From Candidatus Saccharimonadota bacterium (GTDB lineage Bacteria > Patescibacteriota > Gracilibacteria > BD1-5 > UBA6164): a DNA stretch of 32,000 bases. Below the pieces are notes generated by a model, which did no database searches, was not told the origin of the DNA, and was given only the letters and a program-made list of their open reading frames with translations. A program made the translations under genes and the position numbers. The DNA lies in NCBI GenBank assembly GCA_965229705.1, contig OZ245922.1:300001-332000 (forward strand), in the 5' to 3' direction. Below, in pieces: positions 573-21,430 of the stretch; the stretch's first letter is position 1, and each line of letters starts with the position of its first letter.

Positions 573-3245
573 ATGTTTATACGGATACTTTCGAGTATTA
601 TTATATTTTTGTTTTTTATCTTTGTTATTTTTTTTACTTTCTTTCAAGAGAGTAGAGATATTGAGAGTATTGATATCTCTTTTCCTTGAGGTGTCTGAGA
701 AATATATTTGAATGAAGATAAAGGAGCATGGGGGAAGAGCTTTTCTCTTTTTGAGACTCTTTATACCCCGAGCAGAGATACAGAGCTCACAGATTTGTAT
801 GACGATGCAACAACGAGTATAAAACTTTCTCAGTCGCAGTGAGAGTTTGTGAGTTCACTCAGGGACTTACGAAAAAAGTATTATTTTATCACTGATGGAC
901 TTATTGCAACACAGTCATGACCAGGAGAAGTATATTTCCGGAGGGAAGAAACAGGAGAAATATTGCTCTTTCCTCTCAATACGAGTCTTGATCTCAAGCT
1001 TGTTTCTTCTCAAGGAGAGACATATACCTCTATGTATCTGTATCCCCATATGTATTTGCGTTTTCATCCTCTGAAGTGAAAATTTCTCAAAAATGCTGAT
1101 AGAGTCCGTATAGAAACAGTTTATGAGTTATGATTTGTTGGAGATATTAGAGATATCGAAGAACTACCCGATCCGAATATACGGCTAGGAGAAAAACTGA
1201 TTCTTCAAAGTAGTTTTCTTCGAGAAGTACAGTCTTATATCCTGCAAGTACAAGACATATCTGAGCAAAAGCTTGCAGATATGTTGGAGGCAAGGATATT
1301 TTCTCTTAGGGGAATGTCTATGATACAAGACTATATGACGATTTTTCTTAATGAAGAAAAGAAGCTCATATATTATCAAAACCAGGCTCTCGCATCTTTT
1401 TTGAAAAGAATACGCTCAGACTCATACGATACTACTCTTATTCTCGCTGGAGAACGAGATGAAAAAATACTAAAAAAATATAGTGACGAATGATACCAGC
1501 AGCTCAAAGAAGTGCAAGATACTCTTCTCGCGCATATCTTTATGAGTCCAGATAAAGATATGATAAACTCAAAGCTCAACTTCCTTGGAGAAGCAACGGC
1601 AAATGGAAAATCATTTTTTCCTCTGTATACCTATAGCCTCTTTAAAACCTATCACAATACAAGTGTTCTTCAGCAGGAGATACTCAAGAAGTATTTTGAT
1701 GCTTTTCAAATATGGAGTCTCGATATGCCACCATTAGCAAGAGACTATTTTCTCTTCTTCCTCGAAGCTCAAATAACTCATCATCTTTCAGGGGAATATA
1801 CTACTGAAAACTTCGACTATATACGACTCCTATTATGAGAATATTTTGAAATATCATCTGAGTTATATGCTCAAGATAAAAAATCACGAATAACAGCGCT
1901 ATTTATCTATGAAACAATACTGAGAGAGGTTTCTCTATATTTGAGGAAAAACTTCTTTGAGGTGAAAAGAGATGGACAAATACTTCTTCTCAGTAGTGAT
2001 GTGCAAATGGATTCACAGGGACTTTCAGATATGAAAAAGTTTTTCCAAGATATAACACTATTTTTTGAAGAAAATAAGAGCTTTCTCAATAAAAATCAGT
2101 GACGAGATGCAGAAATCTATAACGGATTTTTAGAACTACAAAAAAGCTACGAAGAATACCTCGATGCTCTTACAAATTATGAGTCTTATAAGAGTAAATA
2201 TGATACTTCAAGAAAAAACTTGCTCGACTTTAATGTTGATGGTGAAGATCAGGGAATACAACTCTCGCGAGAAGATTTTTTCGCATACATGAATAACTTT
2301 AAAGGGCTATCTTTTTCTTGAACTTCTGTAGAGATTATTGATAATCGCTATTATCAGGTGAAAAATATGCAGGTGTTTGGGAGAAAAATCAGCTTTGATC
2401 TTTATCCAAGTTCTCTCTACACTATCAAAAATATATATATAGATCAGCAGAGAAGACCACAAGAGTATAAGCTCGATCTTATTGAACAAGAGTGGGATAA
2501 TAATTTCAAAATAGCCGCACCTTCAGAAAAAGACCAATACGACTTTTCTCGTTTTTTCCTTATAAGTCTTTTATGACAAACCGTTGCAAAAAACTCTGTA
2601 GAAGTGTTGGATGATGTAGGGGTGAAAAGCGCAGAGGATAAAACAGAAATCGTATTTAAGCGTAGCAAACTCTTATGAGAGGGAAGTGAGTTATGAGAGT
2701 TTGAGTCTTTGCAAAACTTTTTAAATATTGAGTATGAAGATATTTTTCTTGAACGACAGGGAGATGAGTACCGAGTCTTTCTTGAAGAAGTTGATTTTTC
2801 TCTTCAGGCACCAAACTCTCGCAAAATTTTTTCATGAGTACTGCGTTCAGAATACAACCTGAAAAGCTCATCAAGATCTTTTCAAGACATGGAAATACAG
2901 TTTTATGTAGATAAGAAAAATATTTCACGAGGATATCTCTTGAAAGGTATACGCGTATCACTTGTATCAATAAAAAAACAAGACCTCGCCTGAGTAATAG
3001 GAAAGATTATTGAAGATATTCCAGATATCGAAAATATACTCGTGTACCTTGATCGCTCGTCATATGAAGAAGAAAAAATAGTATTTATCCCATGATTAGG
3101 AGTATATAAATACGACTTCATTGATGAGCAAAACAAAAAAGTCTCTCTGAGTTTTGACAGAGTGAGTAAAACTTTTACCCTCGTTATAGATGGGAAAAAG
3201 TATAGCGGAGTTACATTTGATACTTTAAAAAAATATTTATTTTAA
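573..3245 (+). CDS. Large (890 aa) membrane-anchored hypothetical protein, no family recognised
   Basis: Frame 3 has no TAA/TAG from ATG 573 to TAA 3243-3245. In-frame TGAs (e.g. 687-689, 696-698, 840-842, 1491-1493, 1836-1838, 2574-2576) read as Gly join ORF-track pieces 1281-1493, 1512-1838 and 2358-2576. N-terminal hydrophobic helix MFIRILSSIIIFLFFIFVIFFTFF. The stop lies 2 nt before the next start. Confidence 0.7.
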
Positions 3246-3247
3246 CT

Positions 3248-3442
3248 ATGAAGAAAAAGAAAAACTATATGGCAAAGCTTGGAGCTCTTATTGCGCTTCT
3301 TGCTATCTTTGCTAGCATTATAGGGACGGCAGTTATTTTTATCCTTGGGAGTACACATACATCATCAGTGCAAGAAATGTCTCAAGAAGAGATATATGAT
3401 TTGCTAGAAGATTTTCCCGAAGATATCAACCCTCAAGAATAA
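3248..3442 (+). CDS. Small (64 aa) single-pass membrane protein with acidic tail
   Basis: The ATG lies 2 nt after the upstream stop. TM helix KLGALIALLAIFASIIGTAVIFILG, acidic C-terminus EEIYDLLEDFPEDINPQE, TAA stop. Confidence 0.5.
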   Translation: MKKKKNYMAKLGALIALLAIFASIIGTAVIFILGSTHTSSVQEMSQEEIYDLLEDFPEDINPQE

Positions 3443-3463
3443 TTTTACTTTATCTATAATAAT

Positions 3464-3958
3464 ATGAAAAAATTTTTACGCGAACTGGTGCATGATGAGA
3501 CTTTTGAATTGCTCATTGATACTTCTCTTTTCTCCGAAGAGATTATTATGAATGCCGCATTTAACCTGCAAAATCTCGGATATTTTAGTTTCCAAAAAAA
3601 TGAAGATGCTCGTATGATACTGAGTTTTACTCGAAAGTCAGGTGTGAAACTTCCAGCAAAAGAAATCCTTGGAAGATACAATAACCAATTACTCGAAGTA
3701 GCTCTCAGGGACAAAGTAGAAAAACAAAATAAAACTATACGAGAGGCTATTGTTCTCAAGGCTCTTACAGGACCTTTAGATTCTCAAAACTTTGTTTCTT
3801 TTGATAGTGACGAGATAGTTCAGGATGTTGCAGGTGGTAAAAACAGTAGTAACTCTCCAAAAAAGAAATCCAAAAACACTGCAACAAAACTCAAAAAACC
3901 TCAGATTAGCACAAATACAAAAGCGCTAAAAAACGCCAAAAAACAATTCACACAATAA
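3464..3958 (+). CDS. HxsD-like protein (His-Xaa-Ser system accessory protein family), Lys-rich C-terminal tail
   Basis: Intact 164-aa ORF ending 2 nt before the radical SAM gene. The segment RYNNQLLEVALRDKVEKQNKTIREAIVLKAL resembles the LLNDYxLRE motif that names the HxsD family. Context: radical SAM and His-x-Ser protein genes follow directly. The family call comes from memory of the motif, not from a search. Confidence 0.55.
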   Translation: MKKFLRELVHDETFELLIDTSLFSEEIIMNAAFNLQNLGYFSFQKNEDARMILSFTRKSGVKLPAKEILGRYNNQLLEVALRDKVEKQNKTIREAIVLKALTGPLDSQNFVSFDSDEIVQDVAGGKNSSNSPKKKSKNTATKLKKPQISTNTKALKNAKKQFTQ

Positions 3959-3960
3959 CT

Positions 3961-5418
3961 ATGACTCTTACACATAAAGATATAAACAATCTCAATACAG
4001 AATTGCTTGGACATTTTCGTTTTCGGAAAATGCCTCATGGAAGTTATTTGATTACTAACGATGCCGGAAAGTATCATTTTTTTTCTGAGAACAGTTTTCG
4101 GAAGTTTCTTCGTGGAGATATATCACAGCAGGATATGATCACGCTTACAGGAAAGGGTTTTATCAAAGACGAACTTTATGAGTCTCGCATGGTGGAGTAC
4201 TATAGATCTCGAACATGATTTGTTGGGAAAGGTCCCACACTTCACATGATGGTGATCACGCTGAGATGTAACCATCATTGTCGTTATTGTCATGCGGCAG
4301 TTGCTCCAGTAACCGCGACACAGTATGATATGACGCAAGAGACAGCAAAAAAGTGTGTTGATACGATACTTCATACCAACGCAGAGAGTCTTACTATCGA
4401 GTTTCAGTGATGAGAAGCACTTTTAAACTGGGAAGTATTACAATTTATCGTGGAGTACGCGACGACTATGGCAAAGCATCTTTCAAAGAGTGTGCACTTT
4501 GCTTTGGTGACTAATCTGACACTTATGACGGAAGAAAAACTGAAATGGCTTATGGATCGCCATATTTCTATTTCTACCAGTCTTGATGGAGATAAGGTCA
4601 ATCATAATCATAATCGTACGGGCTATGAGGGAGATAGCTATGACAGAGTGAGTTATTGGATACAGCGTATTCACGAGGTGCGAGCAGAAAAAAATATGTG
4701 ACCACTCGGGGCGCTCCTCACAGTAACTCGGAGAAATATGCCAGACTATAAAAATATTATAGAAGGGTATAGAAAACTTGGCCTCAATAGCATCTTTCTC
4801 AGATGGCTCAACCCCTACGGTTTTGCTGCATCTGATCTAGAGTCTCTTGCCTATAGTATGGATGAGTGGCTTGAGTTTTATATACAGTCTATGGAGTATA
4901 TTTTAGATCTCAATAAGCAGTGAGTTTTTTTTACAGAGCAAATAACGACGGTATATCTTATGAAGATTCTCTTTGATAGAGATCCTTGATATATGGATAT
5001 ACGCAATCCAAGTGGAATCGCTATATGAGGTGTTGCATATAATTATGATGGAAAAATATATGCCAGTGACGAGAGCCGCATGCTTGGTCGAATGGGTATG
5101 GAAGATTTTTTGATGACGCCGATGCAGGAAACGGGAGCAGAGACCTATAGTGCGATGATAGAGAGCGATATTACGAAGATTGCCGTACAATCGAGCTGTC
5201 TTGATGGTCTTCCTGGGTATGATACGCATGCATATAAACCATATTTTGGAGTGGATATTATCCATAACTTCAAGATGTATAACTCTTTGTTTTGTGCTCT
5301 TGCAGAAGATGAAAAGATGCAATTACAGATAGGAGTTTTGGATTATATTTTTGACAAACTTGAGCGTGATCCTGAGGCAAGAAAGATTTTTCATTCGTGG
5401 GTATGAATACAGGTATAA
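3961..5418 (+). CDS. Radical SAM enzyme (485 aa), HxsB/HxsC-like peptide maturase candidate
   Basis: Frame 1 is continuous once TGAs are read as Gly, joining track ORFs 3961-4218, 4450-4701, 4738-4923 and 5080-5406. CxxxCxxC cluster CNHHCRYC at 4267-4290. SAM-binding Q-GG-E has both Gly encoded by TGA TGA (4408-4413). Maturase-like NYDGKIYASDESRMLG follows. Only two Cys occur in the C-terminal ~200 aa. Ends TAA 5416-5418. Confidence 0.85.
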
Positions 5419-5427
5419 CTAAAATAT

Positions 5428-5925
5428 ATGATGAAAAATAGAGGAAAACAACAAAACTTTCTGCGAGGGTTACTGACTCCTGAGAGCCTATTGATTACCA
5501 AAAAGACGACTCTGAGTATGCTCGCGTGATGAGTTGTGCTTTCAAACATGGGTTCTGCAGAGGCAGGTACATCAAAACCAACATGTTATGATGTAAAGAT
5601 CAATCCTATAAGTGAGGACGATGTCTATGGTCACTATAGTGGGAATAAATGATGAAGCGCCAAGGCAAAATGTCCTTCGGGGGCAACGGCACAAAATATC
5701 TCTTGTAGAGTGGATGTATGACATGCTAGTGGTGTAGTGAACGGGCATTTTAGTGTGACTCCGAGCCATACAACCTCTTCTGAATGAAGCTGTCATTCGA
5801 GTCACAGTGATAGCCATGGGAATAATGATTACACACATCAGAATGGTAATACATGGAAAGATAGTAATGGAAATCCAGTAAAAGATAGTAACGGGAATCC
5901 AGTTTTAGGAGGTTGATGATGGTAA
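5428..5925 (+). CDS. His-Xaa-Ser repeat protein (HxsA-like), putative radical-SAM substrate
   Basis: 165-aa frame-1 ORF visible only with TGA=Gly; the standard-code track shows only an antisense ORF here. Signal-like N-terminus ...TTLSMLAGGVVLSNMGSAEA. Repeats GHYS (5629-5640), GHAS (5719-5730, Gly=TGA), GHFS (5743-5754) and CHSSHSDSHG (5791-5820). Tandem KDSNGNPV x2, tail LGGGGW, TAA 5923-5925. Confidence 0.65.
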
Positions 5926-5945
5926 TATGAAAAGAGTAAAAAAAT

Positions 5946-5973
5946 TTGACATAAAATAAAAAATAATTATAAA
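5946..5973 (+). promoter_or_regulatory. Putative sigma70-type promoter (TTGACA, 16-nt spacer, TATAAA)
   Basis: TTGACA at 5946-5951 and TATAAA at 5968-5973, directly upstream of the lipoprotein gene. The -10 sits so close to ATG 5978 that ATG 6005 may be the real start. Confidence 0.35.
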
Positions 5974-5977
5974 ATTT

Positions 5978-6553
5978 ATGCGTATATCTATTAAAAAATT
6001 CTTTATGAAATCATTAGTATTTGGTGCTACCTGCGCAGTTCTTGCCTGATGTTCTTCGAGTGGATGAGGAAATAAGCATGTAAGTGATGTAACTCAGTTT
6101 GAGTTTGATACTACGAAGGGCACTTACAATGTCGCCTGCGATGATCAGTACTCTCAAATACAAGATACAGCATTTACTGTTGCTCAGGGAATTACTGCTT
6201 GTATATGACAAGAAGAAGTTTCTCAAATCCAAACTACAACATGATCTTGTTACTTACGAAACTCAGAAGATTTTTGGAATACTATTTCACAAACTCCTGT
6301 GAGTCTATGAGACACAAAAACTGAGCAACTCAATTATGAATTTTCTAGCAGAAGTGCACCCGTATTTACTGATAAAAATGGAGATGAATCTTATGGGAGA
6401 AAATATAAACTTGCGGCGAATACTCTCAATGGAAACTTAGAAGAGATGGTTATCTATCAAGATGGAGAAGCTCCGCACTTCTTGGATATAGCTCAGAGTC
6501 AGTTTCTTTCGTTTGCAAATTGTATCCTTGCTCACAAAGTAGATAACAACTAA
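5978..6553 (+). CDS. Lipoprotein, hypothetical
   Basis: Frame 2 ORF with TGA=Gly, ending TAA 6551-6553. Signal peptide MKSLVFGATCAVLA-G-C with lipobox L-A-G-C whose Gly is a TGA codon. Alternative start ATG 6005. Confidence 0.7.
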
Positions 6554-6603
6554 ACTCTTCATTTCCATAAGGAAACCCAATATTCACACTTCTTTTTATC
6601 TAA

Positions 6604-6638
6604 AATAAGCGAAAAAAACATTCGCTTATTTTTTTTTC
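6604..6638 (+). terminator. Rho-independent terminator
   Basis: Perfect 10-bp stem AATAAGCGAA (6604-6613) / TTCGCTTATT (6621-6630), 7-nt loop, followed by a T-run from 6631. Confidence 0.75.
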
Positions 6639-6678
6639 TTCTTATAATTCTGCAAAGATATTTTTTTACACATATATA

Positions 6679-8631
6679 ATGAAGAAGATTATCACACTTT
6701 GCCTCTTATCGAGCTTACTGCTTAGTTCGTGCTTCAATTGAGATGGAAATAACGGTTCAGAAGAAAAGCAGAAAAAGGATTTTTATATCCAAACACAACT
6801 CTGAGGAGATTTTCTTGCAAATCCCACAATACTCAAAACATGAAGAGTGAGTGCCCGTAGCGAACTGACACTCGTATCAAACGCCTCAGGAAGAGTAGAA
6901 AATATCCTGGTAAAATCTGGTGACCAAGTACAAAGAGGGCAGGCACTTATATCGCTCTGAGATACCATTGCCAGTTATGGGAATAATCTTGAACGATCTT
7001 CCCTTGCGCTTGAAACAGCAAAAAATAACTATAATTCTAACAAAATCTCTCTTGATAAGCAAGTAAGTGATGCGAAGATATCTCTTGATAATGCAAAAAG
7101 AAGCCTCGCAACCTATGAAAGTGATACAGAGAAGAATATTGAACTCGTTACAGATACGGCAGAAAATGCTGATCTTAGCGATGCAGATTCATCAGCAAGA
7201 CTCCAAATAGAACAACTCACAAATAATATAGAGAAAGCCAAACTTGATTTTGATATTCGAAAGATTAGTGATGAGCAACAAGTAGGATCAATCATAAACT
7301 CCAGCAGAGATCAACTTAACGCGCTGAGTCTCTTGTTTATAGATGTATTGCAGTTTAGTGATGAGCTTCTAGGTGTGAGTGAGGCAAACAGAGACCTCAA
7401 TGATGATTATCAAGACTTTCTCTGAGCCCAAGATAAAAATCAAAAAAACCTCTCAGAAAAAAAGCTGAAAGAACTCCTTGATATAAAATCTTCATGAGTT
7501 TTTTATGATATAGAACAAAAGATAGATGACGAAATGTCAGAAGCAGAAATACTAGAAGTCCTCGATTTTATTCAGGAAATGTATATTTCTACAAAGAGTA
7601 TGCTCAGTATGCTGGAAGAAACTATCAATAATTCCCTGAGAAGTGAAGGAAGTCTTTGAGATACTGAAATAGACACATTTCTTGCCACTCTTAATGGATA
7701 CCAATCATCACTTCAAGGAAATCTTACAGGATTTACCAGTTTCCTTACCCAAACAGAGAGCTTTCTCGCAACATACAAACAGTCTCAACAGTCTCTTCTC
7801 AAGTCTATAGAACTGCAAGAAAAAGATAGAGAAATACAAATAAAGAATCTCCAAAGCTCTAATACAAGTGCGCAAATAGGATTAGATAGAACAGAGCTCA
7901 ACTCAAACGATACGCTCGAAAATCTCAAAAACTCTGTGAATATCGCTCAAACAAATTATGATGTAGCTGTAGAAAATAGAGCATCAAACTTAAGGAACCT
8001 TCAAAATAGTATTGATGATGCAACACTTGGATACAATACCGCTCTCAGGGAATACAAAAAACTTACTATCAACGCACCATCTACGGGAGAAATTCGTACA
8101 ATATTTGCTCAACAGTGACAAGAAGTTGCTCCAGGAACAGCTCTTATTGAAATGGTATGAAATGCAGGAATACGCATCGAGCTGACTCTTAGCGCTGCTG
8201 AAAAAGCACTGATGTCTCTCTGAGATACAGCAAAAGTTTCCATAGGAGATACCAGCTATGATGCCTATGTCCATGCTCTGTCTGATGTCGCAGATAAAAA
8301 TTTTAATTATTATACAGAAATATATTTCGAAAGTTCAGAGAATATTCCTCTCTGAGTCCTCGCGAAAGTAGAACTCATTTCACAAAAAAAGAAAATTCTC
8401 TTTCCACTCTCGAGCGTTGAAACTCTCGGAGACAATAAAGGAGAAGTAAATATCTATAACTCAGAACTAGGGGCACTTGAACAACTACGCTTAGAACTCT
8501 GAAGTATTTATGATGAAAATATTGAAATACTCTCGTGTGATGAACTTTGTCAAAGTGCTCGCATTATCACAAACGATATTTCAAAATATGATGAAAATAT
8601 ATTTAGTATTGTAGAACAAATTTATGAATAA
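6679..8631 (+). CDS. RND efflux membrane-fusion (periplasmic adaptor, HlyD-like) lipoprotein, 650 aa with very long coiled-coil insert
   Basis: Frame 1 checked line by line: no TAA/TAG until 8629-8631. Lipobox LLLSSC. Lipoyl-like segment GRVSARSELTLVSNASGRVENILVKSGDQVQRGQALISL and distal LTINAPSTGEIRTIFAQQGQEVAPGTALIEMV. About 350 aa of heptad-like sequence lies between them. Overlaps the RND pump gene by 8 nt (ATGAATAA). Confidence 0.8.
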
Positions 8632-11600
8632 ACTGAAAAAAGGATTTTTTACATTTTGGATCGAGAACTATAAGCTTTCTTTTCTTTTCTTGCTCCTGAT
8701 TGTTATCGCTGGTTCGGTTTCTTTGATACAAATACCAAAGGAATCCAGCCCTGATATCAAGTTTGGTATCATATCTATTACGACGCAGTACACGTGAGTG
8801 AATCCTGTAGATATAGATAAACTTATCACAGAAAAGATAGAAGCAGAGATAGAAGATATCGAATGAATCAGTAGTATCGACTCAAACTCTTCTGTATGAT
8901 TGAGCTCTGTGACGGTAGAACTCGAAAATGGTATAGAGACTCGAGATGTGATGACAGATATCAGAGATCGAATAGACACTATTGCTTTTCCAAGTGACGC
9001 AGAAGATACAACAGTTCAAGATATATCTACAAAAAACCAACTGTTGTTTGAGGCGCTTTTATATAGTGAAAAAGATATTTCAAGATTTTCACTTCTTTCA
9101 AAAGCTCGAGTACTCCAAAGTGAGCTAGAGTGAAAATGAGGGATTGCAGAGATAAATTTCTGAGGTCAGGGCGGGGATGCTTTTTCTACGGGATCTGGAG
9201 ATGAGGATTATGAAATAAAGGTACGAGTATCATGAGAAAAACTTGAGTCTCTTGGTTTGACACTTGCATGACTTGCATCAACTCTTCGAGCGGAAAATGC
9301 TAATACCCCTCTTGGGAATTATGAACTGTGAGAACTCAGCTATGACTTTCGTTTTGATGGAGAGTTTCGTTCTCTTGAAGATATTGGGAATACCGTTGTT
9401 GCAGGTTCAGGAATATCGCTCGTAAAACTCAAAGATATTGCCACTCTCTCACGAGAATATGCTGATGACTCTATTAGTAGACTTTGAGCATATGAAGTAT
9501 CGGGATACAATTATGTGACACTCTCTTTCAATAAAAAAATCTGAGACAATGTGTTTCAGGTATCTGCTTCGGCGAAAAGAGAACTTGAAAATTTCCTTGA
9601 AACTACTCCATGATATGAAAACCTCAAGGTAAAATACTCTCAAGACTTATGAGAAATCATTATAGAAGACTACCAAAATCTTGCAGGAACAGCACTTCAA
9701 ACTCTGATCTTAGTATTTGTAATCATTTTTATTTTTGTATGATTTCGAGAGTCTTTGATCGCAAGTATTCTTCTTCCACTGGCGTTTTTTATTACCTTTA
9801 TGGTGCTTGATGGTATTGGTTTTTCTCTGAATTTTTTGACAAATTTTTCTCTGGTTCTGACGCTTGGTATCGCGATAGACACTATTATCGTCATCATTGA
9901 ATGAGCCTCTGAGAGACAAAAACTTTGATACAGTAGAAAAAATGCTGTTATCCTGGCAGTTCGGGACCTCAAGAGTCCTCTTATCAGTGGAACGGCAACA
10001 ACGCTTGTAGCTTTCCTCCCGATGATATTTCTTCCTTGAGTGTTATGAAGATTTTTATCATATATTCCGATAACAGTTTTTGTAACGCTTCTGTGAGCAC
10101 TCATACTTTCTCTTACTCTTGCTACAGCCCTTTTCTATAAGCTCTCAAAGAAAAAAACAGAGTTTCACAGAGACGCTTCTTGGGAAGAGTCTCTCTCTCA
10201 GGAAGAGGAAGATTTTCTTGTCTCAGAGAGAGAATGAAAAGCAGAAAAAAAAGAGTGACTCAACCTCAGAGAAAAATTTCTTAACTATATGGGAGAAGTA
10301 TATTGCTGAATGCTCTGAAGATTTTTGCGTTCTCGTATATCTCGTATTACATCGATTTGTATTCCTATAGTCTTACTTATACTTTCTTTTGTGGTTCTCT
10401 CACCAAAAATATGATTCATACTCTTTCCTGCTGCTGATGAGTGAGTGATAGAGATAACTATTGAGTCTCGAGAATGATCATCAAAAGAACGCCTTGAGAG
10501 ATATATTCCAAATCTTGAGGAACTTCTTTCTTCTTATGAGGAAATGAAAGTATTTTATGTGAGCCTACAAGCAAATGTGATGTCTGTATATATTGAACTA
10601 ACAAATTCTCAGACTCGTCAATCAGCAGGTCAAAGAGATGTGTTTGAGATAGAGAGAGATATTTTAGAAAAACTCGATTTTCTTCGCTCAGATGGACTGC
10701 TCGTTGAAGTAAAAACTGCACAAGGCTGACCAGCAACATGAGCTCCTGTTGGGATAAAGTTTCATGTACAACGAGCAGAAGATATCAACCTTATCAAAGA
10801 AGTTTCAGATGATTTTAAATCTTATCTCCAGACAGTAGAGGGAACAAAAAATGTTTCTGCTACTTCATCGGATACACCAGGACAATTTGTCTTTGTATTT
10901 GATAGAGAGGCGTTGGCATACTCATGACTTAAAGCCAGTGATTTATTATGAGAAATACGCCAAAGACTTGCTGGAGTGTCAGCCTGATCAGTAGGTTCTA
11001 CGTATGAGGACAATGATATTATTCTTTCTCTTGATGAGTTTGAGGATGGTGTTCGTCCATATCAGATTCTTGATCTAGAAATACCGACACAAGCAGGAAT
11101 GATTCGTATAGGAGACTATGCTTCCTATGAACTGATCCCTGGTCTCTCATCGATTACTCGAGAAAATGGAAAAATCACTATCGGAGTAAATTCTGATGTG
11201 CAACCATGAGTACTTCCAAGTGATATACAACCATGACTGATAGATTTTGCCGAGACATATATTTATCCTTCGGGTGTTTCGTATTCTGCTTGAGGAGAAA
11301 ATGAAGAAAATGCAGAGCTTATCAATGCTACACTTCAGTCGTTTTTTATCGCACTTTTTCTTATCTTTACAATACTCGTATTTCAGTTTAACTCCTACTC
11401 ACAGCCAGTAATTATCCTATACTCAGTAGTTCTCGCTCTTTTATGAGTAAATATTGGTCTTTTTGTTACGGGAAATCCCTATTCAATGACTTTTGGTATT
11501 TGATTTATTGCCCTTACTTGAGTTGTAGTAAATGATGCGATTATCTTGGTAGATAGGATTAATCGTAACCTTGATAGGCTCGTTCGTAATGCGGGGAATA

Positions 11601-11845
11601 AAAAATTGGTATTAGAAGACTATGTAAACTCTCTTGTCGCAGCAGGAAGATCTCGTCTTCAACCTATTATTGTTACGACACTCACTACACTTTTTTGAAT
11701 TCTTCCTTTAGCGCTTCAAGATGCTTTTTGGGCAGGTCTATGATATACGGTGATATTTGGTCTATTTACAGGGTCGTTTATGACACTCTTTATCATACCA
11801 GCATTGTACTACGCAATATATCTTGGAAAAAAGATGAATAGATAG
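8624..11845 (+). CDS. RND superfamily (AcrB/HAE-type) efflux transporter, 1073 aa
   Basis: Frame 2 is continuous with TGA=Gly and ends TAG 11843-11845. AcrB-like N-terminus FFTFWIENYKLSFLFLLLIVIAGSVSLIQIPKESSPDIKFGIISITTQYTGVNP. Two TM bundles (ALQTLILVFVIIFIFV..., FFIALFLIFTILVFQFNSYSQP...) separated by large soluble domains. Confidence 0.9.
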
Positions 11846-11884
11846 TTCTATAGATACAAATGTTTATAGATTTTAAGAATAGCT

Positions 11885-13291
11885 ATGAAAAAAAATATGA
11901 AAGATATTGTAAACCTCTGTCAAAATAGAGGTTTTGTCTACCCATGATCAGATATATATTGATGACTGGCAAATACCTGGGATTATGGTCCATACGGAAG
12001 CCTCATGAAAGAAAATATCAAGTTCCTTTGGCAGAAAGAGTTTATACAAAAGCGTCATGACATGGTGATGCTCGACTCTGGAATACTGATGAATCCTCAA
12101 GTATGGGTTGCGAGCTGACATGTTGGAGGGTTTTCTGATCCTCTGATTGATGACAAAAATACAAAAGAGCGTTTTCGCGCGGATAAACTTCTCGAAGATT
12201 TTATAGAAAATTCTGAAGATGGCGGTGAGTACCTCAAAGAAAAATATGGCCTAAACTCACTCATTACCGAGGCATGGAGCCTCGAAAAGCAAACAGAAGT
12301 TATGAGAGGAGAACAAGTGAAAAACCCAAATACATGAGAAGCTGGTGATTGGACTGATGCAAAACACTTTAACCTCATGTTTCAGACATCTCAAGGAGTC
12401 ATAGAGGACTCAAGCTCTACGATATATATGCGTCCTGAAACAGCCCAAGGAATGTTTGTAAACTTTGCAAACATTACGAGAACCAGTAGAAGAAAAATTC
12501 CTTTTGGTATAGCTCAAGTCGGAAAAGCCTTTCGTAATGAAATCACACCAGGAAACTTTATATTCCGAACTCGTGAATTTGAGCAAATGGAGATAGAGTA
12601 TTTTTGTGAACCAGGGAAAGAAAAAGAGTTTCATGAAGCTTGGAAAAACAACTGCAGGAACTTTTTGATAAACATACTATGAATCCATAAAGAAAACTTG
12701 AAAATGAGAGATCATGATGTAGATGAACTCTCTCATTATTCAAACGGGACAACAGATATTGAATACAGATTTCCATTTTGATGGGGAGAGTTGTGGTGAA
12801 TAGCATCAAGAACTGACTTTGATCTCAAGGCTCATATGAGCCACTCAAAACAAGACTTGAGTTATTTTGATCCAGTAAATAGTAAAAGGTATATTCCCTA
12901 TGTAGTCGAACCTTCTGTATGACTCACGAGACTTTTTTTAACAACGCTCTGTGACGCATATACGGTAGAAGAAGAGAGGACTTATCTCAAACTTGATACC
13001 AAAGTTGCTCCTATAAAAGTATGAGTATTACCCGTAGTAAAGAAGCTGTGAGAGTTATGAAAGCAAGTCTATGATCAGCTCTCAGAGGATTTTATCTGTG
13101 AATATGATGAAGTATGATCCGTAGGGAAGAGATATGCACGTTTTGATGAAATAGGAACACCATTTTGTGTGACAATAGATAGTGAAAACTTTGATGCAGG
13201 AAATGTTACTCTTAGGTGGAGAGACAGTATGGAGCAGAAGATTATTCCCCTGAGTGATCTCAATGCCTATATTCGTGAAAAGTTGGTTTAA
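11885..13291 (+). CDS. glyQS: Glycine--tRNA ligase (homodimeric GlyQS type)
   Basis: N-terminus [25 protein letters not shown] with TGA at 11945-11947 and 11960-11965 on invariant Gly. Motifs [12 protein letters not shown] and [40 protein letters not shown] 13289-13291. Confidence 0.95.
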
Positions 13292-13330
13292 AAAAGTGAG
13301 AAAAAGCTTTGTATTTATTACTAAAAAGAA

Positions 13331-14143
13331 CTATTTCCGTGAGACTTTTGCCTCTTGTTGCCAGATATCAATATACTCCTGCAGGATTGCGATAATATTT
13401 TCAAAAAGAAGAATTTTTTCTTCAATAATAGTGGTATAGTAGGGCTTATCTTCGAGTTTATTTTTTGCTTTCCGAAACTTTTCGATCATTTTCTCAAAAA
13501 TACTGATTTTTACCTCAGAGCGAAGTTCTTGAAAATCTTCTGTACGAGTAAACTCAAATAGCCTGATTTCGACTTTTCCGAGCAATTCTTCAAATTTTTC
13601 TCTTATAGCTTGTTCCGCATTTTCAAAGGCAGTATCTTGAAGCTCTTCTAGTCTTTCTTGTCGTTCTTCATCTTTTTTTGCAATCTCTGTTGATACATCG
13701 CTACTTTTTACTCTATATGCGAGATCAGCGTCTCGGTACTCAATATATTCATCAAGTCGTTCTGGATCTATATATATCTGTAAAGCATCATAAAAATCGC
13801 TTTTCAGCGTATAAAGTTCTGTTTGAAGAGATGATATATCATTTCACTTTTGGATGTTCACTTCGATGTTGGTATTGAGGGATTTGAGTCCTTTTCTATA
13901 TTTTTCTATAAGTGTTTCTATATTTGTTATTTCTTCTTGAGTGAGTTGTCTCATAAAACCACCGACAAAATCTTGTCAGAGGTAGTAGCTGTTCCATTGC
14001 CAGTCAAGTTGTTGTTTTTCTTGTTCGAGGACCTTAATCTGTTCTTGTTTTTCTCTGAGAGTTTCTCTTTCTTCCAAGTTTTCTGCAAACACACTGGTAC
14101 TCAGAGTAAAAAATATACAAATATATATACAAAATATTTTCAT
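13331..14143 (-). CDS. Secreted coiled-coil protein, hypothetical (270 aa)
   Basis: Track ORFs 13331-13585 and 13976-14209 share a frame and are joined through TGAs 13976-13978 and 13844-13846. Signal peptide MKIFCIYICIFFTLSTSVFA from ATG 14143. The rest is Glu/Lys/Gln-rich and heptad-like. Confidence 0.6.
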
Positions 14144-14302
14144 AAAAAAAGGAGTATAAGAATTGATTAAAGAGCTCCAAAGGAAGAATGTTATAAGGCT
14201 TTTATTCAAAAATAGGAGCTCTTTAACTCCGATATAGTACGAAGAGAAGGAAGAAAAAAAAGAGAGAGAAGTGAATTTTGTGTGAACGCAGAAAAATATG
14301 AG

Positions 14303-16503: not shown

Positions 16504-17634
16504 TTAGCGAAGATCTGAACAATTTTGGAATAGTTGTATACTTCCAAGATTTTCCCAACTGACATCATCTCTTCCAAAGTGTCCATATGTCGCTGTTTTT
16601 TGATATATTGGCTTTTTGAGACCCAAAAACTTGATGATGCCTCTTTGTGAAAGATCAAAATTTTTCTCGATACAGTCTATAACTTTTTCACTCTTAATGC
16701 TGGCATTTTTCATATGTACATAAATGCTCACAGGTTTTACAACGCCAATAGCATATGCAAGCTGTATTTCAGCACTTTCACATAGTCACGCGGCAACAAT
16801 ATTTTTTGCAAGGTATCGAGCCATATAGGCTGCAGATCTATCGACCTTTGAAGGATCTTTCCCTGAGAATGCGCCTCCTCAGTGCCGCCCAATTCAACCA
16901 TAGGTATCTATAATGATTTTTCTGCCTGTAAGTCAACAGTCACCTTTTGGTCAACCAATGGTAAATTTTCATGTAGGATTGATATGAAAAACGGTATCAT
17001 CATCTATGATATCTCTAAGTTCTGTTTTTATGACTTCTTTTTGTATATCTTCTTTGAGTTTTTCGAGTGAAATACCTTCTCTGTGTTGGTTTGATACCAC
17101 TACGGTGTCAACTCTGGTAAATTTTTCGTCATGGTATTCACAGCTGACTTGTGTCTTTCCGTCGGGTCAGAGGTAGGGGAGAGTATTATTTTTTCTTACT
17201 GTTTCGAGTCTTTGAGCAAGTTTGTGAGCAAGATATATAGGAGTAGGCATATAAGCTTCGTTTTCATTTGTAGCATACCCAAACATGATACCCTGATCTC
17301 ATGCTCATCCACTATCAACTCACAGAGCAATATCAGGAGACTGTGAGTTAATGAGTATTTGCACAGATACATCATCGGCTGAGAATCATACTTCTAGAGA
17401 ATCATATCATATATCTCTCACAACTTTTCTTGCAATGTCTTGAAAATTTACCCACGCCTTTGTACTGATCTCTCCACTGACGATGATGGTTCCTGTTGTA
17501 GTCATGCATTCACAGGCTACTCGTGAGTCAGGATCTTGCTCTAAACATGCATCGAGAATTGCGTCAGATATCTGATCACATATTTTATCAGGGTGTCATG
17601 CAGTAACCGATTCTGCAGATATGTAGTGTTTCAT
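16504..17634 (-). CDS. metK: S-adenosylmethionine synthetase
   Basis: [29 protein letters not shown] (Gly=TGA at 17596-17598), [38 protein letters not shown], and C-terminus [12 protein letters not shown]. 376 aa. Confidence 0.95.
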
Positions 17635-17712: not shown

Positions 17713-17730
17713 GAAGTTTTTATACATTTT

Positions 17731-17838
17731 CTATATCTTTCCCGAGTAGGGGAGGAAGGAGCACCTTTTTTCTTTGATAAAATAGGTTGCCGGAGTGGTC
17801 ATAGAGCCTCTGTCTCTCTCACTCGCTCTGGATATGTG
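17731..17838 (-). promoter_or_regulatory. SAM-I (S-box)-like riboswitch aptamer upstream of metK
   Basis: Minus strand reads CAUAUC-CAGAG-C-GAGUG-AG-AGAG-ACAGAGG-CUCU-AUGAC-CACUC-CGGCAACC-(loop)-GGUGCUCCUUCC-UCCC-CUACUC-GGGA-AAG-GAUAU. Hallmarks CGGCAACC...GGUGCU (P3), an AUGA k-turn-like internal loop in P2, a P4 hairpin, short P1 AUAUC/GAUAU, and possible pseudoknot GAGG/CCUC. Manual alignment only. Confidence 0.5.
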
Positions 17839-18063
17839 GGAGTGAGTATAGCGAGTTTTGTTTAAATGCAATGAAATATAGTTGACAAATATAGTATTTT
17901 TATGATAAGATATATTTCAAAGTACAATTATGCTGTTGAGAAACAAGAAATATAGTTATCTATTTTTCAGTGTTTTCTGAGATTATCTTGAAAAAGTCGA
18001 AATGACTCTCCTCGAGGCAGAGCCTAGAGGAATTGACGGATTAAAAAATAAAGTCAAGAAAAT

Positions 18064-18091
18064 TTGCATAAGAAGATAACTCTTATATAAT
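18064..18091 (+). promoter_or_regulatory. Putative promoter of rpmF (TTGCAT, 16-nt spacer, TATAAT)
   Basis: TTGCAT 18064-18069 and TATAAT 18086-18091, 44 nt upstream of ATG 18135. Confidence 0.5.
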
Positions 18092-18134
18092 CACGCAGGT
18101 AATTTTTACAGTTCTTATTATTAACACGATTATT

Positions 18135-18347
18135 ATGGCATTTGGTCCAAAGAAAAAACACTCAAAGCACCGAAGCAGACAACGAACAACAAACTGGATA
18201 AAGCTCACAGCTCGAAAACTGTTCAACAGAGTTTCCCTCAACGCAGAAGAAAATGGGCTTGCACATTTTGCTGATGAAAACGGAGTATATAAGGGAAGAC
18301 AAGTTGTTGCTGCAAAAAAATCAAAAGCGAAAGTGACGCGAGTATAG
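18135..18347 (+). CDS. rpmF: 50S ribosomal protein L32 (Cys-less form)
   Basis: MAFGPKKKHSKHRSRQRTTNWIKLTA...GVYKGRQVV matches the L32 pattern (basic N-terminus, R-x-H/N-W-K, YKGR). No zinc-ribbon cysteines. TAG stop. Confidence 0.85.
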   Translation: MAFGPKKKHSKHRSRQRTTNWIKLTARKLFNRVSLNAEENGLAHFADENGVYKGRQVVAAKKSKAKVTRV

Positions 18348-18357
18348 TCATCTGAAA

Positions 18358-18393
18358 ATCTCTTCCTTCATGTAAAAGGTAAGAGATTTTTTT
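18358..18393 (+). terminator. Rho-independent terminator after rpmF
   Basis: ATCTCTTCCTT (18358-18368) pairs with AAGGTAAGAGAT (18376-18387) with one bulge, followed by a T-run to 18393. Confidence 0.65.
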
Positions 18394-18403
18394 GTATTAT
18401 TAT

Positions 18404-18511
18404 TAAGGAATCTCTGAAAAATAGAGAAATTTTTAATCCTCTCTGTCTCTATCGAGCCATCTCTCCTTTGAAAAAGGAGAGAAAAAAGGAATTTCTCAGA
18501 GATTCCTTAAG
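18404..18511. repeat. MITE-like element with 20-bp terminal inverted repeats related to the 14.3-kb repeat family
   Basis: TTAAGGAATCTCTGAAAAAT (18404-18423) against ATTTCTCAGAGATTCCTTAA (18491-18510) is a reverse complement with 1 mismatch. Internal hairpin TCTCTCCTTTGAAAAAGGAGAGA at 18460-18482. The left arm plus following bases match 14318-14345. Confidence 0.7.
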
Positions 18512-18582
18512 CCTATTGAAGGGAGATTTCTCACTCTTTATCGAAAATTCGAGGGCAGATATAGAAACATCTTACAACACAT

Positions 18583-19047
18583 ATGAACCAAATATCACGA
18601 AAAAAAACTCGAAGATTTCTCCTGCAGATCCTGTATTCTCGTATTTATTGAGATATTGATATGCAGAGATTTTATGTTTCGTATTTTGAAGGAATACTCG
18701 ACTTTGAAATCGATACAAACTATCTTGAATCAATGCAAAAACTGGTTATCGAACACCAAAAAGAGATTGTAAGTATCATTATCGAACTTGCCCCAAAGTT
18801 TGATATAGAGACAATGCTCAAGACAAATATCCTCGCGCTCGCGATTTCCATCACAGAGATGCTGTGGTTTCCTGACGAGATTCCTGCAAAAGTCTCTCTC
18901 AATGAAGCTATAGATATAGCAAAATATTATGGTGATGAGAGCTCAAAAAATATTGTTAATGGCATACTCCATAGCTTTTTAAAAAATATTACAAAGTACC
19001 AAAAAAGTATTGAGATATCCGAAAAGAGTTATGATTTTTTTCCATAA
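18583..19047 (+). CDS. nusB: Transcription antitermination factor NusB, 154 aa
   Basis: Track ORF 18661-19047 extends upstream through TGA 18649-18651 to ATG 18583, giving the NusB-like N-terminus SRKKTRRFLLQILYSRIYG. C-terminal motif SLNEAIDIAKYYGDESSKNIVNGILHSF. Confidence 0.75.
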
Positions 19048-19138
19048 AGAGAGAGGAGACTTTCTTGAAAGATACTTTACACAGAGAAAAAAAATACTAT
19101 TCTTTCTATAACTTCTTATATACTAATTTTTATTATTT

Positions 19139-20167: not shown

Positions 20168-21430
20168 ATGAAAAAACCTGTTGATTACAAGCTATTTTTT
20201 ACAGCATTATTCTTGATGATTTTTTGAATGGTCATGATAAGTTCTGTATCTGTATGGGGATCATTTGGTGTGACGAGTTCTATGGCAGACTCCGGATATA
20301 TTGAAGAGGCATACAATCATTTTTATGTTGTACGAAATATTATCCATGTGATTCTCTCACTCTTTATTATCTGAGTGTGTGTCAAGATTCCGTATAAGTA
20401 TTATGAAAAATATGCTCCTCAAATTTTTTCTTTTTCCGTTATACTTCTCATTTTAGTACTACTTATTGGTCAAAGTTACAAAGGAGCAACCTGATGGTTA
20501 TCAATACCAGGTATTCCTTTTACGATACAACCAACAGAATTTCTCAAGTTTGCTCTTATCGTTTTTCTTTCTTCATTTTTTAAAAAATACCGTTCACATC
20601 TCTCTTCTTTTCAAAGTGGATTTCTCCCATTTCTTGTCATCATTTGATCAGTAGGAATATTGGTGTGAGCACAACCAGATTTTTGAACCATCTTGGTGAT
20701 TATTCCGATTGCTTTTATGATGTTTTTTATTGCAGGAGCAAATTTTACCCATGTATTTGCCATGATATTTTTATGATGTTTTTTAGCAGTTTCTGTATAT
20801 ATTGCCTGAGATTATGACCCCAAAACAGGAAAAAATCTCAATACTCTATGATATATCACTCAGAGAATAGATAACTTTATGTCAGACAATCAAGAAGCTA
20901 TTGAAAACAAGACGATCAACTATCAAACGGAACAGGCACTTATTGCCATTGGAAGTGGTTGAATACTTGGCCTAGGCTTTGGTAATTCGGTACAGAAATT
21001 TGGTTACCTACCGGAAGTACAGTGAGACTTTATTTTTTCTGTTATTGCTGAAGAATGGGGATTTCTCGGAATACTTTTTGTGCTTTCTTTGTACTTACAT
21101 ATTGCATATCGATGATGTATGATATATATACATTCAAAAGATACCTTTGCAAAGTATGCAAGCTTTGGTATTACTGCATGGATTCTCTTGCAAGCATATA
21201 TTAACATATGAGTGAATCTCAATATTGTCCCTCTGACAGGTATTACCTTACCTTTTCTGAGTTATTGATGATCAAGTCTCTTATCTTTGTGTTTGGGACT
21301 AGCCCTTCTTTTGAGTATTTCGAGAGATATTGAGGAAGAGCGACATTTTTATAAAAAGAGATGAAATATATTTTCACTAAGAAAAAGTCTATGAACCTCA
21401 CTCCAGCGATGCAGCAGTATTATGAAATAA
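20168..21430 (+). CDS. SEDS-family peptidoglycan polymerase (FtsW/RodA/SpoVE), 420 aa
   Basis: Frame 2 with TGA=Gly: multi-TM protein with [60 protein letters not shown] and PLTGITLPFLSYGGSS. The first non-TGA stop is TAA 21428-21430, so the tail overlaps mutS by 40 nt. Confidence 0.85.

Follow-up and report, generated by a model that had tools for sequence, protein, structure and literature searches.

A putative reduced Hxs-type radical SAM cassette in a recoded Gracilibacteria genome

Gene layout and genetic code

Positions 573-5925 of the DNA studied here, a stretch of 32,000 nt of contig OZ245922.1 that we call the window, carry a cassette of the His-Xaa-Ser (Hxs) type organised around HxsB, a radical S-adenosylmethionine (SAM) enzyme. 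Its genes are read with translation table 25, in which UGA encodes Gly. Under table 11 the interval holds short open reading frames (ORFs) only; with UGA read as a sense codon, five forward-strand ORFs span exactly 573-5925, separated by 2, 21, 2 and 9 nt, the layout that an initial annotation of this DNA had described. In order, they encode proteins of 890 aa (573-3245, with 16 in-frame UGA codons), 64 aa (3248-3442, none), 164 aa (3464-3958, none; HxsD-like), 485 aa (3961-5418, eight; HxsB) and 165 aa (5428-5925, eight; the presumed substrate). The motifs quoted in that annotation, NNQLLEVALRD, CNHHCRYC and GGE, are all present in the translations.

The genetic code can be read from the enzyme itself. 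The GGE motif of the 485-aa protein, which is universal among radical SAM enzymes, is spelled TGA-TGA-GAA (nt 4408-4416), and in an alignment the UGA codons of hxsB coincide with invariant or majority-Gly columns of its relatives; the code is therefore table 25 and not table 4. The named best matches of the window HxsB belong to Candidatus Gracilibacteria. Its public translation (P0001) shows WWE where properly translated homologues show GGE. In the record of the source genome, the deposited proteins P0001, P0121 and P0124 carry Trp at every UGA, as under table 4, instead of the Gly of table 25, and the same signature is seen in the 50%-cluster representatives P0128, P0134, P0201 and P0213. 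Mistranslation of this kind, turning GGE into WWE, masks such features and degrades database searches.

The radical SAM enzyme HxsB

The 485-aa protein scores 456.8 bits against the HxsB model TIGR03978 (cutoff 370), covering model positions 3-466 of 466, and the next family, PapB, reaches 108 bits. On its sequence it is a full-length HxsB, as expected for the radical SAM enzyme of Hxs type proposed at first; the hidden Markov model search placed it here and not in an unrelated radical SAM family. Membership of the radical SAM superfamily is evident from CNHHCRYC, a CxxxCxxC cluster motif (aa 103-110, nt 4267-4290), from GGE (aa 150-152) and from a match to PF04055 (44.9 bits, cutoff 29.5); a further match is to Pfam Fer4_12 (PF13353, 37.2 bits). 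The window copy keeps 145 of the 153 residues that are invariant in its clade, and all eight changes are conservative, other members showing between one and 13.

The fold was approached through an AlphaFold2 model of P0007, a proxy 61% identical to the window HxsB (predicted local distance difference test score, pLDDT, 89; predicted template modelling score 0.90). The model consists of a beta-beta-beta-alpha-alpha-alpha N-terminal domain (strands 20-23, 29-32 and 38-41; helices 43-50, 60-65 and 74-85), a radical SAM barrel and a SPASM-like helical/beta C-terminal domain. The N-terminal domain resembles the recognition element (RRE) of ribosomally synthesised and post-translationally modified peptide (RiPP) systems and corresponds to about aa 19-84 of the window protein (nt 4015-4212). 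The best matches to the Protein Data Bank found by Foldseek were CteB (5WGG/5WHY; E 5e-18), anSME, TigE, ChlB and SuiB, with E values from 5e-18 to 1e-10, and CteB aligned over the full length of the model, including the N-terminal leader-binding RRE. These enzymes differ from the Gracilibacteria protein in sequence (12-17% identity) and in having one or two auxiliary [4Fe-4S] clusters, for which no Cys ligands are found here. HxsB relatives of the window type were absent from the viral contigs searched, and PADLOC 2023, which has no Hxs model, returned only generic viperin-like radical SAM matches for the window HxsB.

Auxiliary cluster ligands

The window HxsB has just two Cys in its C-terminal 200 aa, at positions 413 and 445, the number counted in the initial annotation. 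In the HxsB of Klebsiella, which belongs to the canonical system, Cys residues lie at 94/98/101 and 399/402/408/432, matching the residues mutated in the published study of that system, in which exchange of C98/C101 or C399/C402 abolishes defence against phage (PMC13128918). C399, C402, C408 and C432 align to Y420, H423 and F429 (nt 5218-5247) and M453 (within nt 5311-5322) of the window protein. Across the clade the four positions are occupied by Y/F, H, L/I/F and M/I/N/T in every one of the 12 Gracilibacteria HxsB proteins examined, and the four Cys are kept in HxsB of Klebsiella, Methylobacter, Planctomycetota and Myxococcales. This comparison of single columns bears out the earlier remark that an auxiliary-cluster motif is missing. 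The absence of a Pfam SPASM match, which had been offered as a test of the cluster, is uninformative and was discarded as a criterion, since the canonical Klebsiella HxsB likewise gives no match. The SPASM-like fold itself appears to be kept, as the matches to CteB and anSME show, with the ligand Cys all gone.

Of 150 representatives of the wider HxsB family, 130 keep the ligands and nine are without them, the remainder being fragments. The sequence WWE, GWE or WGE, which marks recoded genomes, is seen in four of these nine. Ligand loss happened more than once, because the other Cys-less representatives sit beside Cys-containing neighbours. HxsB of the Gracilibacteria clade is thus predicted, from the aligned residues, to lack the ligands of the auxiliary cluster. 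In this clade the enzyme would persist under purifying selection without that cluster, and in the window also without a nearby HxsC. The three-protein set would then be a simpler system in which the reaction of HxsB itself could be isolated.

The presumed substrate

The initial annotation took the 165-aa product for an HxsA-type His-x-Ser repeat protein. It is indeed a His-x-Ser protein, homologous to those encoded behind HxsB in each of the 11 further Gracilibacteria loci studied, but it is not HxsA: searches with NCBIfam and Pfam gave no match, and TIGR03979 (HxsA) none at E <= 1 or at E <= 10. H-x-S motifs occur four times (positions 69, 99, 107 and 123), against 1.07 expected for a protein of this composition (P = 0.013, shuffling). 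Weak when taken alone, this enrichment is backed by 45% identity (E 3e-21) to the (HGS)n protein that lies next to HxsB in a related Gracilibacteria locus, L017, and homology to the protein following HxsB extends to loci L018, L003, L002, L007 and L001. We regard the 165-aa protein as a divergent member of the HxsA3/HxsA4-like His-x-Ser family and as the presumed substrate of HxsB.

Several elements of this protein stand out in the alignment. A basic leader with the motif F-L-x5-ES-x2-ITKK (nt 5458-5517) is followed by an Ala/Gly-rich hydrophobic segment ending in AEA (nt 5518-5565), and both are conserved across the substrate family. The N-terminus thus comprises a basic n-region of 27 aa (net charge +5), a weakly hydrophobic Ala/Gly segment (Kyte-Doolittle score 1.23) and then AEA/G. 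Further along, nt 5719-5754 encode a conserved core with two HxS motifs, GHASGVVNGHFS. The tandem tail that follows at nt 5791-5820, CHSSHSDSHG, is degenerate, and a 24-nt tandem repeat (nt 5857-5904) encodes two copies of KDSNGNPV. Only HSS-HSD-SHG is loosely tandem, where Klebsiella HxsA has HRSHSSHRSHSSHRS.

The HxsD-like protein

The 164-aa protein matches the HxsD model TIGR03976 over positions 1-85 of 90 (E 3.8e-13), but at 49.6 bits it falls just short of the cutoff of 50, so that the HxsD-like identity first assigned to it holds as a borderline case. Its identity to the HxsD proteins of ten Gracilibacteria loci is 37-53%, and close homologues pass the cutoff (55.8 bits in L002). The window motif QLLEVALRD (nt 3686-3712) aligns to the Klebsiella-type LLNDYALRE, with D61 of the published protein replaced by E and R65 retained as R (numbering of PMC13128918). 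The conserved N-terminal domain comprises aa 1-120. A single-sequence structure model (pLDDT 67) gave no significant Foldseek match, the best being Rpb11-like at E 3e-3, and this low-confidence model bears no apparent resemblance to an RRE.

An acidic motif, IDFDKDIDEILKEIENDPDL-IDE-EIE-IL, is found in all other Gracilibacteria HxsD proteins and in part in those of Myxococcales and Planctomycetota; in the window HxsD it is replaced. The C-terminus of the window protein (3833-3955) is a basic, low-complexity tail rich in Lys, Ser and Asn. Loss of the acidic tail coincides in the window with loss of the genes for HxsD_rel and HxsC-like proteins.

The Gracilibacteria Hxs module and its probable paralogue

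Eleven other Gracilibacteria loci, drawn from GTDB genomes and metagenomes, were examined (L001-L007, L010, L016-L018); L010 covers only the 3' end of hxsB and what follows, and L007 has toxin-antitoxin (TA)-like insertions between the cassette genes. HxsD, HxsB and a His-x-Ser protein co-occur in all of them. The typical order is HxsD of about 190 aa, an acidic protein of 61-71 aa, HxsB and a protein of 116-165 aa, to which a transmembrane (TM), Cys-containing protein of 230-265 aa and several further radical SAM genes are often added. In the 116-165-aa protein, the basic leader (KKxFPKLKKKLxxFLTDESGKITKKDALG) and a hydrophobic segment rich in Ala and Gly are conserved together with a core of the form H-[AVIS]-S-G-[VIL]-[VI]-N-G-H-x-S, after which comes a C-terminal (HGS)n tail. 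Fuller loci also encode PapB-like radical SAM/SPASM enzymes, a PP-loop ATPase, an asparagine-synthase-like protein, methyltransferases and a 2-oxoglutarate-Fe(II) oxygenase. The Gracilibacteria HxsB family as a whole comprises more than 120 clusters at 90% identity.

NCBIfam holds the variant families HxsA2, HxsA3, HxsA4, HxsC4 and HxsD_rel, and the Gracilibacteria proteins approach several of them. The acidic 61-64-aa protein scores 47.8 bits (L002) and 36.3 bits (L001) against HxsD_rel, whose cutoff is 41; HxsD_rel is present in L001, L002, L004, L005, L008 and L016-L018. The HxsA-like proteins score 28-45 bits against HxsA3 and HxsA4 (cutoffs 65 and 55), and the extra radical SAM enzymes 40-127 bits against HxsC4 and HxsC (cutoffs 500 and 268). 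A true HxsC is found in the Planctomycetota locus (385 bits). The Myxococcales locus L008, which has the same gene order and an HxsC4-like radical SAM enzyme, passes HxsD (51 bits), HxsD_rel (82.4, cutoff 41) and HxsA4 (116.6, cutoff 55). As far as these profile scores indicate, the Gracilibacteria module is a distant relative of the NCBIfam "type 4" Hxs variant.

The window departs from this typical module. A six-frame similarity search found no HxsD_rel (NF038315) in it, hxsD and hxsB being 2 nt apart, and the whole 32 kb holds neither a second CxxxCxxC ORF nor any similarity to HxsC (TIGR03977) or HxsC4 (NF038332); the observation of a single radical SAM gene therefore extends to the entire window. 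The copy found here is thus without HxsD_rel, the acidic tail of HxsD, a nearby HxsC-like enzyme and most HGS repeats. The contig, of 1,006,762 bp, also carries a second HxsB, P0021, with a split and more His/Ser-rich HxsA-like protein (P0122/P0123). P0021 is 72-73% identical to the proteins of L017 and L018; the window HxsB is 64-65% identical to them, and no other branch of the HxsB tree is as long as its own. In L002, L003, L016, L017 and L018 the cassette occupies an orthodox site beside RRF, a nucleotidyltransferase and a DHH phosphoesterase, and the site in the window differs.

We consider it probable that the cassette, a unit of three genes, is a paralogue of the Gracilibacteria Hxs module that has diverged and changed its place in the genome. 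The suggestion that Hxs occurs here in reduced or variant form, in a CPR (candidate phyla radiation) genome using table 25, has held up, in the form of a three-gene set from which the auxiliary ligands and HxsC are gone. To judge from its residues the copy is not decaying, because HxsB keeps nearly all clade-invariant positions and its changes are conservative.

One of the loci shows an arrangement of its own. In L007, a complete Patescibacteria chromosome (OZ245768.1), small TA-like genes of the nucleotidyltransferase/HEPN type lie between hxsB and the HxsA-like gene (11537-14297), and two more TA-like genes lie between hxsD and hxsB; all were called by eye from the translations, with no family scoring.

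The upstream genes and the conserved backbone

The 890-aa and 64-aa proteins had been put forward as new partners of the Hxs cassette, to be checked by co-occurrence in related genomes. This is not borne out. Neither gene occurs in the 11 other Gracilibacteria Hxs loci, nor in the Myxococcales, Planctomycetota, Methylobacter and Klebsiella loci, and neither protein matches a Pfam or NCBIfam family. The N-terminally membrane-anchored 890-aa protein has only three distant homologues (27-30% identity). These are proteins of about 900 aa in contigs L012, L014 and L015, encoded after a phospholipase D (PLD) gene and before a small TM gene, with no Hxs genes present. The single-TM 64-aa protein has 77-aa homologues directly after the ~900-aa gene in L012 (E 2e-9) and L015 (E 2e-8), and has no relationship to HxsD_rel, the acidic protein of 61-71 aa encoded in other Hxs loci. 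An HlyD-like gene comes next in L012 and L014, followed in L012 by a resistance-nodulation-division (RND) gene; L015 ends just past the small TM gene. The flanks of the window mirror this order, with PLD at 63-470, an HlyD-like gene at 6679 and RND at 8624. The PLD gene (forward strand; NucT/DrmC-like, under cutoff) is consistently tied to the ~900-aa orphan and the small TM gene in the three contigs, so that these genes make up a conserved neighbourhood of their own.

On this comparative evidence, the 890-aa and 64-aa genes would be part of a PLD / ~900-aa / small-TM / HlyD / RND backbone and not of the Hxs cassette. Since the backbone is conserved without Hxs genes, the block 3443-6678, which holds the three cassette genes (hxsD, hxsB and the 165-aa gene) and a gene for a lipoprotein of 191 aa, counts as an addition to it. 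The two upstream genes thus appear to be neighbours of the cassette by accident of insertion. The GC content of the block, 0.388, is only a little higher than that of its two flanks (0.344 and 0.368), and a search for boundary repeats or mobile-element scars around 3443-6678 found short AT-rich chance matches only.

No forward-strand terminator-like site lies within 573-5925. The sole strong one between 573 and 7000 is an intrinsic-terminator-like hairpin at 6602-6632 (a 12-bp stem and a T run), which closes the extra block ahead of the HlyD-like gene. Judged by the absence of an earlier terminator, co-transcription of the cassette with the two upstream genes is possible. The lipoprotein gene (5978-6553, forward strand; lipobox LAGC) has a promoter-like site of its own, TTGACA-18-TAAAAT at 5946-5975 (11 of 12 matches), and its product has no homologue in any locus fetched. 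Equating it with the TM/Cys proteins of about 230-265 aa that follow the substrate gene elsewhere was considered and dropped, as no homology was detected. A functional link of the cassette to the adjacent HlyD/RND efflux genes, for instance in metal handling, was likewise rejected, this adjacency being unique to the present genome and the orthodox site lying by RRF and DHH.

Comparison with known Hxs systems

Hxs systems had been described in the initial annotation as uncharacterised in chemistry and function, a view now outdated. In E. coli, HxsD-HxsB-HxsC-HxsA is an antiphage system, HXS, which keeps phage DNA from entering the cell and is the first bacterial defence shown to do so (PMC13128918; Nat Commun 2026). 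HxsA is processed at its N-terminus, and its SHRSS sequence bears a modification of +8 Da (PMC13128918); the nature of this modification and the individual chemistry of HxsB and HxsC are unsolved. In the census of that study, Pseudomonadota account for 99.7% of systems, and the genes for HxsB and HxsC invariably lie side by side (PMC13128918). The search used canonical HxsA, which is why the Gracilibacteria family was missed.

With canonical HXS (the E. coli MEM system and Klebsiella plasmids; TIGR03976-03979) the window shares the layout of HxsB, with RRE-like, radical SAM and C-terminal domains, and the placing of hxsB between two smaller genes. The one immediately upstream encodes an HxsD-family protein, the one downstream a His-x-Ser protein whose N-terminal part includes a hydrophobic or signal-like segment. 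It differs in having no HxsC, which is adjacent to and paired with HxsB in the canonical system, and in the replacement of all four auxiliary Cys of HxsB. The substrates also differ: that of the window lies outside TIGR03979 and has no PG_binding_1 domain, which Klebsiella HxsA shows (PF01471, 25.5 bits), neither it nor its L017 relative giving any Pfam match, and its HxS motifs are central and C-terminal where the canonical protein has a block of five near the N-terminus. Finally, the host is a CPR bacterium using table 25, as opposed to the Pseudomonadota that dominate the census. In L011, a Methylobacter plasmid (NZ_CP091425.1), a canonical hxsB-hxsC pair is followed by a thermonuclease-family gene (5182-5898) in place of an annotated hxsA, and genes for a PDDEXK nuclease and a DUF3644 protein are close by. 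Here a system of canonical type may have exchanged its effector.

The type 4 variant (HxsA4, NF038313; HxsC4, NF038332; HxsD_rel, NF038315), represented by L008, contains the closest HxsB outside CPR bacteria, 38% identical to that of the window. Both have the substrate gene directly after hxsB, with a leader and an (HGS)n stretch ending in an aromatic residue, and the typical Gracilibacteria module carries HxsD_rel and HxsC4-like genes as well. In contrast, the window has neither HxsD_rel nor HxsC4, and its substrate gives no match to either the HxsA4 or the HxsA3 model. The hydrophobic segment and a conserved H-x-S-G-V-V-N-G-H-x-S core, both found in Gracilibacteria substrates, are not in Myxococcales HxsA4, and Myxococcales HxsB keeps the auxiliary Cys. 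No publication was found in the literature on the variant families HxsA2, HxsA3, HxsA4 and HxsC4.

Proposed mechanism and alternative explanations

In the mechanism that we propose for the cassette, the RRE-like domain of HxsB would bind the basic leader of the 165-aa precursor, with HxsD acting as an adaptor. Hydrogen abstraction at the single [4Fe-4S]/SAM site of HxsB, which has no auxiliary cluster, would then lead to modification of a residue of the GHASGVVNGHFS core or of the HSSHSDSH tail, and the product would be exported, or anchored in the membrane, through the Ala/Gly-rich hydrophobic segment. A more far-reaching and rather doubtful reading is a naturally minimal Hxs system, in which single-cluster HxsB and HxsD suffice for the radical modification of an exported His-x-Ser protein in an ultra-small CPR bacterium. 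If this is true, HxsB gains an autonomous catalytic role, which the E. coli study (2026) could not separate from that of HxsC, and envelope defence of the HXS type, or a new use of its chemistry, extends to recoded episymbiotic bacteria that the census missed.

A number of points weigh against this account of the cassette. In E. coli, HxsB, HxsC, HxsD and C399/C402 of HxsB are all required for HxsA processing and defence, and HxsC binds HxsD, the two being modelled as the modifying core (PMC13128918). A system without HxsC and the auxiliary cluster may thus perform different chemistry or none, and HxsC4-like and HxsD_rel proteins may act in trans from the second Hxs locus of the genome. The 164-aa protein lies 0.4 bit under the HxsD cutoff, and the 165-aa protein reaches no threshold of any HxsA family, including HxsA4 (NF038313) and HxsA3 (NF038309); the tail has only degenerate repeats, and no complete family member that was scored has a weaker hydrophobic segment, a lower value being found just for P0122, a partial fragment of a paralogue (1.14 vs 1.23). 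The evidence from fold is weakened because the model is of P0007 and not of the window HxsB. Moreover, the Gracilibacteria envelope may lack the periplasm used by the E. coli mechanism.

Dependence in trans can be taken further, the cassette being a satellite of the primary locus (P0021, P0122/P0123) that adds a substrate-enzyme pair and relies on its HxsD_rel, HxsC4-like or other radical SAM proteins. The second HxsB and the more His/Ser-rich HxsA-like protein on the same contig speak for such a satellite, as does the presence of HxsD_rel and additional radical SAM enzymes in most other Gracilibacteria loci, some of these enzymes having HxsC or HxsC4 as best family, together with the need of E. 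coli HXS for both HxsB and HxsC. However, the HxsA-like gene of the second locus is apparently split into two ORFs, HxsC-like genes are not universal (L018 has no radical SAM gene within 10 kb downstream of its cassette), and HxsD, HxsB and the substrate of the window have co-diverged as a set, so that we rate the satellite as possible but on the unlikely side. That the copy is instead a functionless duplicate, its losses being steps towards pseudogenisation, seems quite improbable: the long branch of its HxsB, the deleted acidic motif of HxsD, a diverged substrate leader with the repeats cut to CHSSHSDSHG and the failure of the substrate on every HxsA model would fit decay, but the three ORFs are intact, HxsB retains CxxxCxxC, GGE and 145 of 153 invariant residues, and the substrate keeps the GHASGVVNGHFS core and the ES..ITKK leader motif. 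Most improbable is a five-gene operon with the 890-aa and 64-aa membrane proteins as new functional partners. The gaps of 2-21 nt and the uninterrupted interval 573-5925 make co-transcription plausible, yet the homologues of both genes stand together in three contigs with PLD and HlyD/RND flanks and no Hxs genes, and none was found in the other Gracilibacteria, Myxococcales, Planctomycetota, Methylobacter or Klebsiella Hxs loci.

The role of the cassette is a separate question. By analogy with HXS, interference with phage at the level of the envelope would have roughly one chance in three. It is weakened because HxsC, the auxiliary cluster and the PG-binding domain are missing and because the fuller loci have a RiPP-like context with multiple radical SAM enzymes. 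The PapB-like radical SAM/SPASM enzymes, the PP-loop ATPase and the other proteins listed above for those loci fit clusters of this kind, and Myxococcales HxsA4, with a leader and no hydrophobic segment, resembles a cytoplasmic RiPP precursor. These features, the lack of a PG-binding domain and the absence of PADLOC matches beyond the viperin-like ones would suit a functional cassette outside phage defence, whose secreted or surface-bound His-rich, RiPP-like product might serve, for example, in metal binding or host interaction. This reading is tentative and somewhat unlikely; the sole Hxs system studied experimentally is antiphage, canonical loci lie among nucleases and mobile elements, and L007 has TA-like insertions in its cassette.

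Other features of the window

On the reverse strand, 17730-17838 match the SAM riboswitch model RF00162 with 47.6 bits, more than its gathering score; the riboswitch is directly upstream of metK (16504-17634), as is ordinary. In the adjoining 1.3 kb or so (17839-19138) no convincing ORF, tRNA or tmRNA was found, nor any Rfam match at E <= 0.1 besides the riboswitch; an ORF of 163 codons at 18468-18959 contains nine UGA codons and has an odd composition. On the forward strand, a MutS-like ORF of 410 aa (21361-22593) has the N-terminal domains only, overlaps the end of an FtsW-like gene and is immediately followed by a holA-like gene; from its domain content it may be a truncated mismatch-repair gene. 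Two near-identical reverse-strand genes, 23653-26586 and 28084-31296, encode proteins of 977 and 1070 aa with about 12 and 14 copies, respectively, of a 135-nt (45-aa) unit, KFLKDDLELTG..IGQL..GDIETK.SYLLKT...PEKPVW. They flank an IS200/IS605-like tnpA gene (26720-27325) and a gene for a 179-aa multi-TM protein.

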